Below, in pieces: positions 1 to 31,154 of a DNA stretch of 64,000 nucleotides (positions are counted from its first letter, which is position 1; each line of letters opens with the position of its first letter). A model generated the notes under the pieces. It was not told the DNA's origin. It did not search any database and saw nothing but the letters and a program-made list of their open reading frames with translations. The position numbers and the translations under genes were made by a program. The DNA lies in the IMG/VR virus record IMGVR_UViG_3300009710_000010, positions 30,549-94,548 of that record; one strand, written 5' to 3'. This stretch comes from a virus (taxonomy: Duplodnaviria > Caudoviricetes).

Positions 1-206
1 CCAAATTCCCAAGTGGTCCAGGTAAATTCACCGTATACTCTAAATAAGTTCATATTAAGACTCCTCGTAATAATACACTTGATATTTTAAATCCTCAGAA
101 CGTAATTGAATGTTAATAATAAAACAATCCATCATATAAAAGAAGTCTTGAAGTTGATTAAAACTACCAAAAACTTTATTTTGTATGTTTTTACCTAAAG
201 TGTTCA

Positions 207-512
207 TTATGCAGCTCCTTTTTCTAAATCGTTAAAATAGTCATAAACTTTATGTTTCGCCCAGAACTTTCTGGCCCTTTCAGTCTTAATGATCCCGTAA
301 GCGCCAAACATCCAACCTTCAGCTTTACACTTCTTTTTAAGTTCTTGGACTAACAAAGAACCATAGCCCATTCTTCGGTGGTCCTCGTATACCATTAGGT
401 CGTCTACCAATAGTAAATTCCCATATTTGAAGATTCTCGCATCAGCCACGGCCTTACCGTTAACTAGAACCCAACACGTTTCACCATACACGAACTTTAC
501 ATCTTTAGGCAT
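207..512 (-). CDS. GNAT-family acetyltransferase
   Basis: Acetyl-CoA-binding motif A (MVYEDHRRMGYGSLL) and C-terminal ARKFW; 101 aa. Confidence 0.7.
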   Translation of the reverse strand: MPKDVKFVYGETCWVLVNGKAVADARIFKYGNLLLVDDLMVYEDHRRMGYGSLLVQELKKKCKAEGWMFGAYGIIKTERARKFWAKHKVYDYFNDLEKGAA

Positions 513-622
513 ATTATAGTCCCTCTTTAATAATCGCGTTAGAAGTGTAGATATTCTTACTCAATTTTAGATTTATTAAGTCGAGTTTATCCCAAATTTC
601 TTGAATTAAAGTTTGTTCCACA

Positions 623-1493
623 TTATTCTCCTATAGCTTTCTTTAAAGTTTGTTCAATTTCGTTTCTTAAAGTTGGATGTAAATGGTAAGTCAAAACTTC
701 TTGAAGTAATAAATACATCTTAGGAGATTGACTCATTAAATCCGATTGCAATTGACTTTCTAAGTCTTCAGCAGGTCCAGATAAGCTTATAAGACTTAAA
801 TCCGGACGACATACACATGAGTGGTTTTGGATAGTTTTAAAGTCAGAAGAGGGAGTGTATTGGCCGACGGTCCAACTTTCATTAGTCCAATTTTTAATGA
901 TTTCAGCTTTACTTTTCATTATTGCACCGTCTGATACTTTCTAGGAGCATAATCGCTCACTCGATCTATGTGGTTAATAACTTCTGAGTCAGATCTAAAA
1001 CTAAACTTTCTCAAAATCACGCCATTCAAAACTAAAACCCAGTAAACGCCGTAATTATCGACTTTCTTAGTAGCAAAGAAAACCATTTTATAGTTTATAT
1101 CAGAACCATCCATTAAAAACCTCCAATATAATTAAAAAGAGTCATGCCAATAAAACCAACCGTATAAAGTAAAGTCACAAAACAAGCAATACTTTCCATA
1201 AATTACTCCTGTACCAAAATAGGATTCTTAGCAATAAAAGCATCTACACCAGAATGGTAGTCTTCAAAAGCATTAGCATTCGAAGTATGCCAACCTTTAG
1301 ACCAAGCCTTGTACATCATAATTCTACGACCTTCAGGAACTTCATCCTTAATAAACTTAAAGAATTCAGTATCATAATGTGGAACAGACTTTAATCCAGT
1401 ATTAAAAGCCTTTACACCATATTCGTATGCTTTTGCTTTAAGATCTTTTAATTTAGGTTTATTAGATTTCATAATGTAATCTCCTATATACAT
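623..1493 (-). CDS. Three small hypothetical early proteins (623-919, 919-1113, 1203-1493)
   Basis: Co-oriented ORFs, the first two with a TAATG overlap, SD-like GGAG upstream; no recognisable motifs. Confidence 0.55.
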
Positions 1494-1750
1494 AGTATAA
1501 GCTATTTCGACTATACTTATACACTAAAAAGTATAGCTGATTCAAAATAGCACATATAGATAAAGGATCTATATCACTATGAGCCGGGGCGGAACCCTTG
1601 ATGCTTATATAGGATCTAAATTAGGTGCTACCGCAGCGCGAAGCACCGGCGAGCGGGGGGTTTTAGCTGGTGCCATCTGCAATATACGGACTGCATTTTA
1701 TGGGCTATACCGCTTAAATAGGATCTGGATGTACGCATTTCAAAATTATG

Positions 1751-1780
1751 TTGACAAATCAACCAGGTGGAAGCTATTAT
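1751..1780 (+). promoter_or_regulatory. Sigma70-type promoter for the plus-strand island at 1900-2848
   Basis: TTGACA (1751-1756)-N18-TATTAT (1775-1780); a second extended -10, TGGTATAAT, at 1846-1854. Confidence 0.6.
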
Positions 1781-1899
1781 AGGATCTATTAGATAGCGCT
1801 GGTAGCGCGCCGGCGCCGTCTTGGCGCAGCGATAGCGTCTCATAGTGGTATAATATAGTTTTGACCTTATGACTATACTCAGATCCTATTTAAGCGCAA

Positions 1900-2397
1900 T
1901 TGGAGCATGCTGTGCAATGTAAACGATGTAAATCATGTATGGCGAATTTGCCGTTATCTGCATTCGGTGTTTCTCGACATGAGAAGGATGGGATGCGTCC
2001 TACATGCTTCGAGTGTCAAGCTCAGTATCCACGCCTTAAACGTAAAGCCAAATATAAGGATCTACGTTCTCATATAGATGATTCTGTTATTAGATCAGTT
2101 CGTATGCAGAATATAGCTGTTCTTGATACGGCTTTAAAATCCACATTAGAGGTTCGAGCTCTTAACTACTTGACCAAAGTTCCATATAAAGTTTTCTTTG
2201 GACCATCTTCAGTTAATGGAATGCACTCTATTGCCTTTTTCGACTTTAATTCAGTCTTATACCGTGAATTTATATTCTCAGGTGGAGATGCGAATATCCA
2301 AGAGATTATATTAAACATATTACGTGATCATAATCTTAGGCTAGAATATACCGATGGAGATTTAACGACTTCTCTGTCGACTATATATTATGTCTAA
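1900..2397 (+). CDS. Hypothetical protein with N-terminal Cys-rich zinc-binding motif
   Basis: CKRCKSC...RPTCFEC; overlaps the start of the next ORF. Confidence 0.6.
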   Translation: MEHAVQCKRCKSCMANLPLSAFGVSRHEKDGMRPTCFECQAQYPRLKRKAKYKDLRSHIDDSVIRSVRMQNIAVLDTALKSTLEVRALNYLTKVPYKVFFGPSSVNGMHSIAFFDFNSVLYREFIFSGGDANIQEIILNILRDHNLRLEYTDGDLTTSLSTIYYV

Positions 2398-2848
2398 ACG
2401 CGTTACTACTCAAAAATTATTACAGCTTAGATCCAGAATGGTGAAAGAAGCCACTCAGCGTTTTCATACAGATCCTGAGGGTATTGCTTCCATATATGTT
2501 ATACGCCTCTTAGAGGGCCTACATAAGAAAGCCACCGTCAGTCAAGCTTACATCGATATTGTCAGGTTAGAATCCGGTAGAAAAGCCTCTTACGAAGCAA
2601 AGGTAGCTCATATATTAGAATTACATGAGTCTGGCCGAATGGTGGAATTAGTTGAAACGTACGGTCAAGAGTTCGAAGCTAACTATACGATTACAGATAG
2701 CTTTATGGTTTTAAGCGGTTGTTTTAATCCTAGAAATCCTAATCAAACTAATGGATGGCAGTTCACTAATTTAGAAGATGCTCTTAAAAAGAAGTTCTTA
2801 TTAATTTACTACCGAGTTTACGACCATTATGTGAGAAATGTCCAATAA
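2390..2848 (+). CDS. Chimeric ORF: N-terminal 65 aa resemble sigma-70 region 2, C-terminus unrelated
   Basis: PEGIASIYVIRLLEG...TVSQAYIDIVRLESGRK resembles ECF region 2.2-2.4 (D..R); junction at the inverted repeat 2578-2585. Confidence 0.55.
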   Translation: MSKRVTTQKLLQLRSRMVKEATQRFHTDPEGIASIYVIRLLEGLHKKATVSQAYIDIVRLESGRKASYEAKVAHILELHESGRMVELVETYGQEFEANYTITDSFMVLSGCFNPRNPNQTNGWQFTNLEDALKKKFLLIYYRVYDHYVRNVQ

Positions 2849-3199
2849 TACATCCAAAGAACGTATTAAAGATCTAGTATATATTTAATGCGTTCTATCT
2901 CTTTGGTGACTATTTGATGAATCCTACTTTCAGTCACCCCAGCTTCTTCTGCAATCTCAGCGTATTTATAGCCCAATAAAACCTTATCAAAGATAGCCTT
3001 ATATTTAGGCTTTACAAACTTCAAAGCTAAATGTAAGTCTAACCGATCATCCACACTTACGTTAAGGACTTCAGGCTGGTTTTCTATATACGAAGCTTGC
3101 TCATCAGACGAAGCTTGCTCATCAGACGAAGCTTGCTCATCAGACGAAGCAACCTGGTTTATACTCTTCCGTTTGTCATAAGACTTAAAGCCTTTTCTA
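2578..3199. repeat. In-frame 8-bp inverted repeats TAGAAAAG (2578-2585) / CTTTTCTA (3192-3199) bounding a candidate invertible segment
   Basis: Read directly; both copies encode Arg-Lys in the same codon phase of the two convergent ORFs. Confidence 0.7.
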
Positions 3200-3351
3200 T
3201 GAAGCTCTTGTTGAGCTTTAATTTCGTTAAATTTTGCTTGGATTGCGTTTGCTTCATTATTGTAAAGAGTGAATTCTGCACTAGATAAATCTTCACGGTC
3301 TAACTGACGTTCTAACCACTTAAGTCTTGCTTCTGGGTTTTGACGGTCCAT
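2866..3351 (-). CDS. Chimeric ORF: C-terminal sigma-70 region 4 HTH fused to an unrelated N-terminal 53 aa
   Basis: DLHLALKFVKPKYKAIF...GYKYAEIAEEAGVTESRIHQI is typical of region 4; N-terminus is coiled-coil-like. Confidence 0.7.
   Translation of the reverse strand: MDRQNPEARLKWLERQLDREDLSSAEFTLYNNEANAIQAKFNEIKAQQELHRKGFKSYDKRKSINQVASSDEQASSDEQASSDEQASYIENQPEVLNVSVDDRLDLHLALKFVKPKYKAIFDKVLLGYKYAEIAEEAGVTESRIHQIVTKEIERIKYILDL
3091..3150. repeat. Perfect 18-bp tandem repeat, 3.3 copies (CGAAGCTTGCTCATCAGA), encoding (ASSDEQ)3
   Basis: Read directly. Confidence 0.95.
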
Positions 3352-3452
3352 GATTTAGCTCCTTTGTTAGCTATAAATACAATATATAAATATAACTTTA
3401 CTTTGTACAATTAAAAGTATAGTTGTATCGAATTGATGCATGAGAGTTAAAA

Positions 3453-3829
3453 TGGTGGACCTGGAGGGAGTCGAACCCTCGTCCGCAAGACATTACTCTC
3501 AAGACCTTTTACATGCTTAGGCTATTTTAAAGACCAGCTCCCAGTCTTAGGGGCGATCTGGCTTCAAACCATTTCACCCTCCACCATCTGATCTTTACAG
3601 GCGTCAGAATTCCTCAAGCTAGTTTAAAAGTCCAGCTTAAATGACTCTTTTTGATACTTTCTGTTTCGAGGTTGTATCCACCCAATCAAAGCTAACTGCA
3701 ATTAAGCAGCGTTTTGAAATGCGAAATCGTTAGATTCTGCATTTATAAATCGAAGCAGGTTTTAACCGTCCACTTCACCGGTCGCATGATTCTAAGCCTA
3801 TTTCTCCACGTCGAAACCATGGCAGGCCC
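3453..3829 (-). ncRNA. ssrA: tmRNA (one-piece), tag AESNDFAFQNAA*
   Basis: 5' GGGCCTG pairs with 3' CAGGTCC-ACCA including G3.U70; T-arm GAGGGTTCGACTCCCTC; tag ORF 3740-3702 with GCA resume codon ending GCT GCT TAA. Confidence 0.95.
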
Positions 3830-4006
3830 AATTAAATATAACTTAACTATTTAGATCTGTAAATCGATCTCTATTAAAAGCTCTGACCACTCCATCTTCA
3901 GCCAAAACGTAGTACATCTTGTGAAGTTCTTCTATTATTTTATAACTCTTACCTTCGATTAAATAAGAAGCAAATCCTTTTATGCATTTAAGTTCGTAGA
4001 GATAGA

Positions 4007-5396
4007 TCATGATAAATCCTTGTATCTTACAAGACCTTTATAGAGCAATTTTATGTATTTTATGTATTTAAGGATAGTCATATTTTTAAGCTTTAAAATG
4101 TGCTTACGGTTAATCCAAAAGTATTTAACGTCTCTTTTCATTTCCCACTCTGGATTGAAATCTAAATATTCGAACGTTTCTGTATTGAGTTCTACAGCTC
4201 CCCATCCTAGATTTCTATGATTACCATAAAGCCATTCAGTTTTCATACGACTACCTTATTACACCTTTCGGCAACTTTACATCCATACACGCAATTGCCA
4301 TTTCAGCTGTTTCGTCTTGAGTCATTTCTTTGGCATGTCTTACTAAGCATCCCCAAGCGGCTTCTGACCCTATTTGAATTACGACTTCATTTTCAGATTC
4401 ATGGTTCATAACGAAACCAGGATCTTCTTTACCTTCAGGAATAGCTAATATGAAACCATCTTTTGTAGTGATGGTCTTTTGTTTGGCCTCCATATATTTC
4501 AAACAAAAGTACAAGCGTCTGTGGAAGCTATAATGAATCGCCATTTAATCCTTCTTTCGGTAAACTCTTATATTGCCATTTAAGTTGTTCTAAGCAAATT
4601 CGTTCACCTTTATTGTTAGTTAAGATAAATCCACCGTCCCTCATATCGAATCTAAGGTTGATGTATTTACAATCCCAGTTTTTAGCCCAAGACCAATCCT
4701 CGACTCCAGGCTTTAACGTATTTCCATCTTCTTCATACATGTCATCAATATCAACGGCCAAAGCTTTAATAGTCTTAATGAATTCGTCAAGCTCTGATTT
4801 ATTGTGCCACATATTCGACTCTACCATTTGATTATGATACGCCAAGACTGGAGGGCAGTTTACACCTGGAACTTGGGGTTCTGGTGGAGGATCTTCTGGC
4901 TTTTTATATTCAACGTAGTTTGTAGCTTGCCAATATCCATACTCGTTTGAAAGATCTGGATTAGGTTTATTTCTAGACCTAGCGGCTTTCTGTTTAGCTC
5001 TTCTTTGGGCTCTATTCATAACAATCCAATCAACGATTCAATAAGTCCAAATATAAGTATTCCACCAAGTCCCACTCCAACTGAAACTATAATCAAGACT
5101 AAAATACCACCTGTGATTTCTGTAAGTCTATCTCTATTCATTTAGTATCTCCTATTAGATTTAGCTTGACCCATTTCATCAGCATGGTCTGCCGCTTTCA
5201 ATAAGTTTTCAGCTAACTCTCTTGCATCGTCGGGACTCAAGTGAATTTGGACCTTTGCACCTTGAACTTCTTCTTGTTTCATTGGATCCCAAGTAGATTC
5301 TACAACTTGAGTAACTACTACCATGTCATTAGATCCAGCGGTTTCTACGGATTGACCACGTTCTTGTTCAAATTTATATTGCACCCAAGATTTCAT
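4007..5396 (-). CDS. Run of hypothetical early proteins (4007-4246, 4251-4544, 4528-5019, 5142-5396)
   Basis: Tightly packed co-oriented ORFs; 4528-5019 starts with an NRAQRR motif common in phage proteins. Confidence 0.55.
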
Positions 5397-5420
5397 TTAA
5401 GTTCCTCTAGTTCTTTCTGT

Positions 5421-5867
5421 TCATTGATTTTTCCAAGTAGGTTTTCTTTTATCGTTCTTCCATTTTTCAGCCATATAAAGCTTGTACGCTTCGTGCACGT
5501 TTGACACGTCTTTGAATGTAGTGCAATTAGGATGCGTGGTCATAGGTGCATCTTTAAACATGATTCTACGAGCTTGAAACATCTCCAAATATTGATGACA
5601 TTTATGTGTCTTTCCGTACCGATGAGTATATTCGCTCAGTAAGGCTTGGAAGTGTTCAACCGTCCAATCGTAATTAGATCTATTCTCGCGTACCCAAATA
5701 GAACACGGATGATTTACATGTGTAGGTTTATAAGGTGCATTTCCACCAGTTAAATGGATAGCAGTACTCAACAGCTGACAAGTCTCAAGTACCATCTTGA
5801 CTACTCGCTTATCATCTAACTCTTCTGCGCATACTGTAGGGTCTGGGTGTGTAGCAAAGATATTCAT
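5421..5867 (-). CDS. Pyrimidine-dimer DNA glycosylase / endonuclease V-like protein
   Basis: MNIF...DDKRVVKMVLETCQLLSTA...YKPTHVNHPCSIW signature. Confidence 0.8.
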   Translation of the reverse strand: MNIFATHPDPTVCAEELDDKRVVKMVLETCQLLSTAIHLTGGNAPYKPTHVNHPCSIWVRENRSNYDWTVEHFQALLSEYTHRYGKTHKCHQYLEMFQARRIMFKDAPMTTHPNCTTFKDVSNVHEAYKLYMAEKWKNDKRKPTWKNQ

Positions 5868-6551
5868 ATTAAAATCCAACCTTTTCGCAGGACACTTTAC
5901 GGTAATTAGTATCTACGTAATAGTTGTCAAATCTGTATTTTACAGCTTTCAAATTCATAACCATATAAAAGTCAAAACCTTTATCTAATACTCGAACTAC
6001 CCCAGCTGACGATTCTGGAAATAAAACGTGCTGAAGGCAATCGTCAACTTCCAAAACACGGACCGAGGCGCAGCCTTGGATCATAAAAGCTAACAAATAA
6101 ATGGCAGCTATAGTCAATAAACTGGTCAAAAAATTTTCTTTTGTTTTAGTCATTTATAGACTCCCGCTAACGGGTATCGGCCTGGTTTTAATGTATTGAC
6201 GACTTTCAATAGATCTTTCTTTGAAGTGTAATACCACTCGGGCTCCGTGTACGGATCACCTTTCCAGGTGAAAGTAAAATACTCTCCAACTTCAACTATA
6301 TGAATCTTTTTACAGTTATTATTTGAAGTGTTTAAACCACCTACGTATTGATAACGGCGTCTAAATTCAACTGCTCCGTAGTTTCTAGCACTTGCGCAGA
6401 TGAAAACATCTGGACGAAAACCTGCACGTTTAAATACAGGAGCCACTACGTAATACTTACGCTCAATGGTTCTACGATGAGGCTTTCTAACTAATACTAA
6501 ATCGTTTGAGAATCGATCTTGATAGACCCAACATGCAGTTTTAGGCATTTG

Positions 6552-9601: not shown

Positions 9602-10141
9602 TTACGCATAAAGTTTTCCTTCAATCCAGATTTCATTATTAATAATTTGAGATACATGACCTTTTGAAATCTTAAACCCTTCAACCAGCTTTGAATACGA
9701 AGCACCCATTTTATGAAGGTATCTGATTGTTCTTACGGTTTCCCAATCTAAACGGACATTTCCCATAACTGGAGGTTTCCCACCATCTTTACGGAATCTA
9801 TGGTAATTATTTTTGGATTGAGTCACTAATTCTAAGTTCTCTGGAGAGTTATTGTAGCCGTTATCATCAATGTGATTAATTACTAAATCTATTTCTAATC
9901 GGCCTTTGAATTTAGCGTAAATGATTCGATGAACTTGAAGCATGCGCCCAAAATACTTCACAGTATAATAATCTCGGCGACCACTTCCGGCAAGTCTCCA
10001 TACATTGTTTACTGATACTTTTCCGGTTTTGGTTATTCGAGTCCAAACTGTTCCATCAGCACGGACTTCGTAATTAGGATCTTTTAATAATTCGTAAATG
10101 TAAGAATCATTTGTGCAAGTTAATTGTCCAGATCTTCCCAT
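9602..10141 (-). CDS. HNH homing endonuclease (HNH_3 plus C-terminal HTH)
   Basis: VHRIIY...INHIDDNGYNNSPENLELVTQSKN. Confidence 0.85.
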   Translation of the reverse strand: MGRSGQLTCTNDSYIYELLKDPNYEVRADGTVWTRITKTGKVSVNNVWRLAGSGRRDYYTVKYFGRMLQVHRIIYAKFKGRLEIDLVINHIDDNGYNNSPENLELVTQSKNNYHRFRKDGGKPPVMGNVRLDWETVRTIRYLHKMGASYSKLVEGFKISKGHVSQIINNEIWIEGKLYA

Positions 10142-30509: not shown

Positions 30510-31154
30510 ATGGCAAAATTAGTAGCATTCTGCGGAGCAAAAGAAAGTGGAAAGTCAACTTCGGCTGAACTTTTTAGACAAGCCGTAAACACCGCAACCG
30601 AAGAAGTGGCATTTGCTGGTCATTTAAAAAAGACCTGTGCTAAAGTTTTTAAAATTGACATTAAATATTTTTTAGATACTAAACTTAAAGAAGCTGAATT
30701 GGAAACTTATGTTAGACTAACCAAAGAAGCTATTGAGCAAATATTCCAAGAATTTGATATTCAAGCCTTTGATTATGACAAACATATACGTCCCCATATG
30801 GGTCAAGTTTTTGATACACCTCGTAAAATACTTCAATACGTTGGAACAGAAGTCCTACACCCTTTAGACAAGAATATCCATGTGAATATTACTCTTAAAA
30901 AGCTAAATCCAGAAGTAATTACAGTCGCCACGGATTTAAGATTCCCTCAAGAGTTTGATGCTTTAAAAGACAATAAAGATTTTATTCCAGTTTATGTTAA
31001 TAATAAAAAAGCAGAAGACGCAGCTGCAGCGGATACTCACGCATCTGAACAAGGTTGGAAACAGTTTAAGCACTTATGTATTGAGCTGGATAATAACGGT
31101 ACCATGTCCGATTTAATAGCAAATGTAAATAAATTTATTAAGGAGAAATTATGA
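30510..31154 (+). CDS. Deoxynucleoside monophosphate kinase
   Basis: GAKESGKST, FAGHLK, TPRKILQYVGTE, TDLRFPQE, HASE. Confidence 0.88.
   Translation: MAKLVAFCGAKESGKSTSAELFRQAVNTATEEVAFAGHLKKTCAKVFKIDIKYFLDTKLKEAELETYVRLTKEAIEQIFQEFDIQAFDYDKHIRPHMGQVFDTPRKILQYVGTEVLHPLDKNIHVNITLKKLNPEVITVATDLRFPQEFDALKDNKDFIPVYVNNKKAEDAAAADTHASEQGWKQFKHLCIELDNNGTMSDLIANVNKFIKEKL

Follow-up and report, generated by a model that had tools for sequence, protein, structure and literature searches.

How did a tailed phage come to carry two convergent genes that each encode one part of a sigma-like factor, and does this arrangement serve as a switch? The question is raised by open reading frames (ORFs) A and B in a 64,000-nt stretch of IMG/VR virus record IMGVR_UViG_3300009710_000010 (Duplodnaviria; Caudoviricetes; positions 30,549 to 94,548 of the record), referred to here as the window, the numbering of which is used below. 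As called, ORF A (2390-2848, + strand) encodes 152 amino acids (aa) and ORF B (2866-3351, − strand) 161 aa, and the two converge on a spacer of 17 bp (2849-2865). Each contains one copy of an 8-bp inverted microhomology: the left copy, TAGAAAAG, within which the crossover lies, is located at 2578-2585, and the right copy, CTTTTCTA on the + strand (the reverse complement of TAGAAAAG), at 3192-3199. Both copies are read as xxT AGA AAA Gxx, i.e., Arg-Lys, in identical phase. An earlier reading of these letters (the original prediction) held that the DNA between the repeats is inverted, that turning it back rebuilds a sigma factor (A′) and a second protein (B′), and that the inversion operates as a transcription switch. 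The ORFs, coordinates, repeat positions, and shared Arg-Lys phase on which it was built all proved accurate on re-reading.

Exchanged halves of two gene families

Protein searches with A and with B brought back identical proteins, which were matched by different halves of the two queries. One set, comprising P0001 (163 aa), P0002 (161 aa), and P0007 (159 aa), is matched by residues 1-65 of A together with residues 54-161 of B; the other, comprising P0004, P0005, and P0006 (139 aa each), is matched by residues 1-53 of B together with residues 66-152 of A. When the homologs of either family are multiply aligned with the two halves from the window, these halves meet with zero gap and zero overlap, the rebuilt joints being ...LESGRK/GFKSY... 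in A′ and ...HRK/ASYEAK... in B′ (slashes mark the joints). Residues 1-65 of A are 74-85% identical to residues 1-65 of P0001/P0002, and residues 66-152 are 57-68% identical to the B′ homologs. The DNA of the closest relative, locus L001, matches window positions 2131-2588 on the + strand and 2864-3199 on the − strand, with 11 nt at the repeat TAGAAAAG common to both matches, and the L001 sequence GGT AGA AAA GGC TTT AAG TCT TAT combines the left flank in A with the right flank in B. Because the homolog halves abut and the L001 match changes strand at the repeat, turning 2586-3191 around gives back an A′ of 173 aa and a B′ of 140 aa, just as the original prediction had proposed. Both junctions fall exactly at the short inverted identity, the hallmark by which a microhomology-mediated (illegitimate) inversion is recognized.

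Searches for homologs of the rebuilt proteins, which the original prediction had suggested as a check, yielded full-length colinear relatives in both families. Among 1.84 billion representative proteins, the A′ family profile found 278 matches at E ≤ 0.001, nearly all of which span the whole profile in proteins of 140-220 aa. Among the partial matches, only P0003, which is A itself, stops at profile position 75, the rest being whole sigmas or fragments. The B′ family comprises 19 members of 135-171 aa, all colinear. Full-length homologs of A and B as assembled, which the original prediction had named as a refutation of the inversion, were not seen: no other chimera occurs among the 278 + 19 members.

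Collectively, these comparisons indicate that A and B are reciprocal chimeras: when 2586-3191 was inverted, two convergent genes traded their 3′ halves without a change of frame. The inverted 606-bp segment contains both 3′ gene halves and the 17-bp spacer. Outside it lie A residues 1-65 (2390-2584, + strand), corresponding to the N-terminal, three-helix, sigma-2-like part of ancestral A′, and B residues 1-53 (3193-3351, − strand), corresponding to the N-terminal helical hairpin of ancestral B′. A residues 66-152 (2585-2848, + strand) correspond to the C-terminal part of ancestral B′ (the end of a long helix and a small alpha/beta domain), and B residues 54-161 (2866-3192, − strand) to the part of ancestral A′ that holds the conserved G-F-K-S-Y motif, an acidic linker, and the sigma region-4 helix-turn-helix (HTH). 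A thus joins a sigma-2-like domain to the B′ C-domain, and B joins the B′ N-hairpin to the sigma linker and sigma-4, each under its own start signals, which for B include an AGGAG ribosome site and, at 3409-3381, a match resembling a promoter. The sigma-2-like and sigma-4 parts are consequently placed on separate chains encoded on opposite strands, the former ending at residue 65 of A and the latter starting at residue 54 of B.

Origin of the inversion

A single fixed, microhomology-mediated inversion, by which the only recognizable sigma gene of the phage was split, is the probable origin of this locus, rather than a switch. The original prediction had named a fixed inversion at the microhomology as a caveat, and it is now the better reading, given the chance-level repeat, the one orientation in 5/5 contigs, and the uniqueness of the chimera. 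Ancestrally, a mini-operon of a CxxC gene and A′ (+ strand) would have stood tail to tail with B′, the last gene of an opposing early-gene array, and T-AGA-AAA-G would have occurred by chance in both genes, in the same codon phase and in inverted orientation. One illegitimate recombination or replication template switch within the 8 bp would then have flipped 606 bp, so that the 3′ halves of A′ and B′ were exchanged reciprocally and in frame.

The repeat itself is unexceptional. Three exact inverted 8-mers were observed between the two genes, compared with a mean of 5.6 in 500 shuffles. No exact inverted repeat of ≥9 bp occurs between them, and the 8-bp pair matches at 9/10 positions when extended. 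Taken alone, it is therefore at chance level and matters only through its coincidence with the homology breakpoints. Sequences on either side of one breakpoint show no similarity to those around the other, and no common recombinase site is visible. The original prediction had likened an imperfect dyad at the rebuilt B′ junction to a recombinase core site; on reading the sequence, the dyad lacks a counterpart at the rebuilt A′ junction. Sites of the Hin/Gin and dif/lox types were compared with the junctions by eye and rejected because the two junctions share no half-sites.

These features bear on the idea, central to the original prediction, of a programmed and reversible inversion in which a recombinase flips 2586-3191 and toggles between intact sigma plus B′ and the two chimeras, yielding four proteins from two genes. 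Its appeal lies in an exchange that is in phase and scar-free and leaves both ORFs open, in-frame fusion having a prior of only 1 in 3 when the inverted repeat is a random one. The weak dyad at the rebuilt B′ junction and a perfect 17-bp inverted repeat that brackets a promoter 500 bp upstream point the same way, and intragenic invertons are known from bacteria (PMC10028968). The repeat pair, however, is at chance level with unrelated flanks, and the search for a tyrosine or serine recombinase elsewhere in the genome was negative: searched against the virus record of 94,548 bp (about 82% complete), none of the families PF00239, PF00589, PF07508, and PF01548 (Resolvase, Phage_integrase, Recombinase, and IS110/Piv-type) gave a match, and the controls were positive. 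The resolvase found at locus L015, a 2.2-kb contig of a related phage, likewise gave no tblastn match in the 94,548-bp record. On that contig, a 196-aa serine recombinase gene (PF00239; 133-723, − strand) divergently adjoins an intact A′ homolog, P0011 (854-1381, + strand), an association that favors a switch.

The orientation of the segment was the same wherever it was seen. A as assembled is present on 5 contigs, and the exact protein of its upstream neighbor is also present on 5 contigs with a matching length distribution; the equal counts and lengths therefore imply that 5/5 contigs with the neighbor carry the inverted form. Over 2301 bp, tandem repeat of the sigma linker included, the window is matched at 100% identity by an ENA contig (94,793 bp, SPAdes-style) and a JGI contig (17,213 bp); the virus record of 94,548 bp and another two contigs share the arrangement. 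Inversions linked by microhomology are typical chimeras of multiple-displacement amplification, and the original prediction had accordingly listed an artefact of assembly or amplification, with a true genome that is uninverted. This is very improbable, as the separate ENA and JGI assemblies are base-identical, the virus record and two more contigs agree with them, and assemblers work with k-mers much longer than 8 bp, so that the repeat cannot cause a misjoin.

No flipped-form protein was found in the protein searches. This is weak evidence because the 15 billion proteins of that collection do not include the exact B sequence either, even though gene calling placed a 161-aa gene on L003 and L004. 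Exact scans for the junction flanks in viral and metagenome contigs, from which records of or near the window's own genome were excluded, returned no match; related-locus searches with A, B, or the alignments returned nothing beyond L009; and INPHARED phages gave no DNA or protein match to this phage.

The relatives place A′ and B′ in different surroundings. A Zn-ribbon (CxxC) gene (1939-2397, + strand) lies upstream of A in the window, and its stop overlaps the A start (ATGTCTAA). It is a conserved upstream partner of the sigma-like gene, with homologs directly upstream of A′ in L001, L006, and L013; its PHROG match, to endonuclease VII/Lar-like Zn-ribbon proteins, covers the N terminus only. 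A′ is followed by an ADP-ribosyltransferase gene in L001 and L006 and by an 81-aa gene in L013. B′ lies within a co-directional early-gene array in L002, L007, L008, and L018, the last of which has its CxxC gene 4.3 kb from B′, on the other strand and with no A′ beside it. A′ is also absent beside the CxxC gene in L002, and the 54-kb record G001 has no A′. In none of the relatives examined are A′ and B′ adjacent, and there is therefore no conserved invertible module. The comparison of orientation in related phages advised by the original prediction thus found neither the gene pair as neighbors nor another chimera, and the tail-to-tail adjacency that allowed the event is, as far as these loci indicate, peculiar to this lineage.

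By sequence, the genome looks like that of a large lytic-type tailed phage. Genes at 16405-52637 encode a DNA helicase, GroEL, ribonucleotide reductase, a primase-helicase, DNA polymerase, and an SbcC-like protein, as well as terminase, portal, major head protein, and a T5 A1-like "DNA transfer protein" (phrog_1745). The chance-level repeat, the lack of a recombinase, this lytic-type genome, the 5/5 inverted contigs, and the absence of both another chimera and any A′-B′ adjacency argue for a one-off event.

Some observations weigh against a fixed inversion. Two intact chimeric ORFs and a scar-free junction fit a reversible system too; a recombinase could sit in the missing ∼18% of the genome or come from the host; and a small serine recombinase gene lies directly beside the A′ homolog in L015. 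The five contigs may share related samples, their independence being unproven, and consensus contigs hide minorities, so that a minority orientation is possible alongside the 5/5. Nevertheless, with four recombinase families missing from the 94.5-kb record, a single orientation in 5/5 assemblies, a chimera that is unique among 278 + 19 members, and a gene pair that is never adjacent in the relatives examined, a programmed switch seems quite unlikely. We would give even less credence to a segment that flips at low frequency through a host or new enzyme, with no recognizable recombinase, toggling intact sigma-like factor plus B′ versus chimeras and so turning a phage sigma factor on and off at the level of the DNA.

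Parent proteins and their separated domains

The ancestral A′ is, as judged from profiles and models, a small two-domain sigma-like protein with a region-4 HTH. Among 50 aligned members, Pfam recognized Sigma70_r4 in 43 and Sigma70_ECF (extracytoplasmic function) in 10, and Sigma70_r2 in a single one (E 0.0038). B residues 106-155 match Sigma70_r4_2 and Sigma70_r4 with E values of about 1e-4, below the Pfam cut-off, and the homolog P0007 passes the region-4 cut-off (25.2 versus 24.1 bits). The family profile matched PDB sigma factors with an E value of 2.5e-11. In the AlphaFold model of P0002 (predicted local distance difference test, pLDDT, 91), three N-terminal helices (7-23, 29-41, and 50-62) are followed by a less confident middle and a four-helix C-terminal domain. 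All top Foldseek matches of this model are sigma factors (ECF SigL, probability 0.99), and its residues 101-161 superpose on sigma-4 of SigD with a Z of 9.7 and a root mean square deviation of 2.1 Å over 61 aligned residues. Over its full length (residues 1-161), the model aligned in Foldseek/VIA with ECF SigL/SigH/SigE and with SigB (6dv9_F, probability 0.99), at a template modeling score of about 0.35 and a large root mean square deviation. In the view of A′ as a complete ECF-sized sigma factor, region 4 is supported (43/50 in Pfam; Z 9.7), and region 2 is only faintly seen by sequence in this family (1/50); the Pfam search gave no Sigma70_r2 match in the genome. The acidic sigma linker of B contains a perfect 18-bp tandem repeat of 3.4 copies (3090-3150; SSDEQA ×3), the unit of which is single-copy in relatives, so that the window has 36 extra nt and 12 extra residues relative to L001/P0002; no homolog has a linker of this length, the 12 residues being extra in comparison with all of them. 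This triplication is a second recent change within the same gene.

No second clear sigma-like gene was detected in the record. A weak Sigma70_r4-like match (9638-9724, − strand; E 0.034, 10.9 bits) lies inside a 188-aa open frame, which may encode another HTH regulator. Since no other sigma-like gene is detectable, the phage would no longer make a single-chain sigma-like factor. Its lineage would tolerate this loss, the factor being accessory in this phage group; that A′ is probably accessory is suggested by the relatives that keep the CxxC gene without it.

B′ is less readily classified. The family corresponds to no Pfam or PHROG family, the model of P0158 had no Foldseek match in the PDB at E ≤ 0.001, and an Atlas search gave no usable match. 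A VIA-wide fold search reached a Z of 7.5 at most, only on the generic N-terminal helical hairpin. The model consists of a helical hairpin, a long helix (21-65), and a small alpha/beta domain. An intact but diverged B′ paralog (about 160 aa, 27-34% identical) is encoded outside the window at the left end of the virus record (C1:162-644, − strand; locus L017); it is similar to P0168 and P0169, which belong to the longer proteins of the family.

The positions of the breaks in these proteins bear on whether the inversion was fixed and retained because its products work, either as a two-chain sigma that docks on RNA polymerase, possibly joined by the B′ halves, or as new regulators. Both chimeras keep promoters, ribosome sites, and whole structural units (the three N-domain helices in A; the linker and complete sigma-4 in B), and the lineage is present in five assemblies. 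Hairpin 1-51 of B′ behaves as a unit in fold matches, at the end of which the break is located. Two-chain sigma functions also exist elsewhere, as T4 divides them between gp55 and gp33 and B. subtilis has the two-subunit sigma SigO-RsoA. The locus resembles these systems in that sigma-2-like and sigma-4(-like) functions reside on separate chains, but gp55/gp33 and SigO-RsoA are evolved partners, whereas the parts described here are recent fusions with halves of an unrelated protein. Moreover, A′ is broken directly behind helix 3, within the motif that the family conserves best (R-x-E-S-G-R-K-G-x-x-G-Y) and not in the flexible linker, and B′ is broken inside the long helix 21-65. All contigs are identical, which leaves no selection signal to be read, and the absence of A′ beside the CxxC gene in some relatives implies that its simple loss is tolerable. 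For the two B′ halves, in the form in which the chimeras contain them, a complex prediction scored 0.04 against a mark of 0.32 and carries no weight either way. It is thus possible that the chimeras act as a two-chain sigma or as new regulators, but retention for such working products is on balance unlikely.

Flanking features and related systems

The CxxC-A operon is preceded by a sigma-70-like promoter match, TTGACA-18-TATTAT (1751-1780, + strand), which agrees with the consensus at 11/12 positions and is a consensus match only. The perfect 17-bp inverted repeat (1711-1727/1880-1896), located 500 bp upstream and just before the operon, encloses 152 bp in which a TGGTATAAT accompanies this near-consensus promoter. 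Between 1556 and 1890 there are five or more (T)AGGATCT boxes. These elements could represent operator sites or an invertible promoter.

On the other side, a phage transfer-messenger RNA (tmRNA) gene lies beside B (3453-3829, − strand), with an ARAGORN tag peptide of AESNDFAFQNAA and an Rfam RF00023 score of 98.7 bits; it was the sole Rfam match in window positions 1-6000. In the two closest relatives, L001 and L006, the place equivalent to B′ plus tmRNA is occupied by the ADP-ribosyltransferase gene, which is absent at the equivalent place in the window. Its 449-460-aa product (PF01129 ART; PF03496 ADPrib_exo_Tox) is encoded convergently with A′ (L001:5483-6865, − strand; L006:1039-1359, − strand). 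The next gene on the L015 contig has an N-terminal MSKPIY..P.KPY motif, as in the L001 ADP-ribosyltransferase gene, on the opposite relative strand.

The inversion of 2586-3191 shares most with the spontaneous short-repeat inversions of phages and bacteria: its breakpoints lie in chance-level inverted identity, no sequence was gained or lost, no recombinase or site architecture was found, and each assembly has one orientation. Unlike in the usual events of this kind, both breakpoints are in coding sequence and in the same phase, so that no gene was disrupted and a pair of intact, reciprocally chimeric ORFs resulted; in addition, one of the parents is the only recognizable sigma-like gene of the phage. 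Intragenic and partial-intergenic invertons have been surveyed in bacteria with PhaVa (PMC10028968). As in these invertons and in shufflons (Hin/Gin/Cin, Rci), the inversion alters the encoded protein, and C-terminal parts are swapped as in shufflons. Such systems are, however, recombinase-driven, have recognizable inverted repeats, and show both orientations in a clonal sample, whereas here no recombinase was found, the repeat is an 8-bp chance identity, a single orientation was assembled, and the exchanged domains are unrelated rather than homologous variants.

The original prediction had further drawn an analogy to sigK, which in Bacillus subtilis and Clostridioides difficile is interrupted by the skin element excised by SpoIVCA (PMC5025042). 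The likeness consists in a sigma gene that is interrupted in the DNA and in principle restorable by one recombination. Beyond that, the analogy breaks down: sigK is split by a prophage-like element with its own large serine recombinase, and the excision is developmentally programmed, whereas the phage gene is split by a reciprocal inversion that breaks a second gene too, with no inserted element, no recombinase found, and 17 bp of noncoding DNA between the halves.

If it were true that both orientations coexist, this would be the first phage sigma factor to be switched by inversion. Read as a fixed inversion, it is a clean natural case of a reciprocal, in-frame domain swap between two unrelated genes, brought about by a single small inversion at an 8-bp chance identity, and it illustrates a route of domain shuffling in phage genomes without a mobile element. 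It also amounts to a natural experiment, in which a circulating phage has its one sigma-like factor divided into a sigma-2-like part and a sigma-4 part. Use of the pieces by the phage would show how separable the two sigma domains are.

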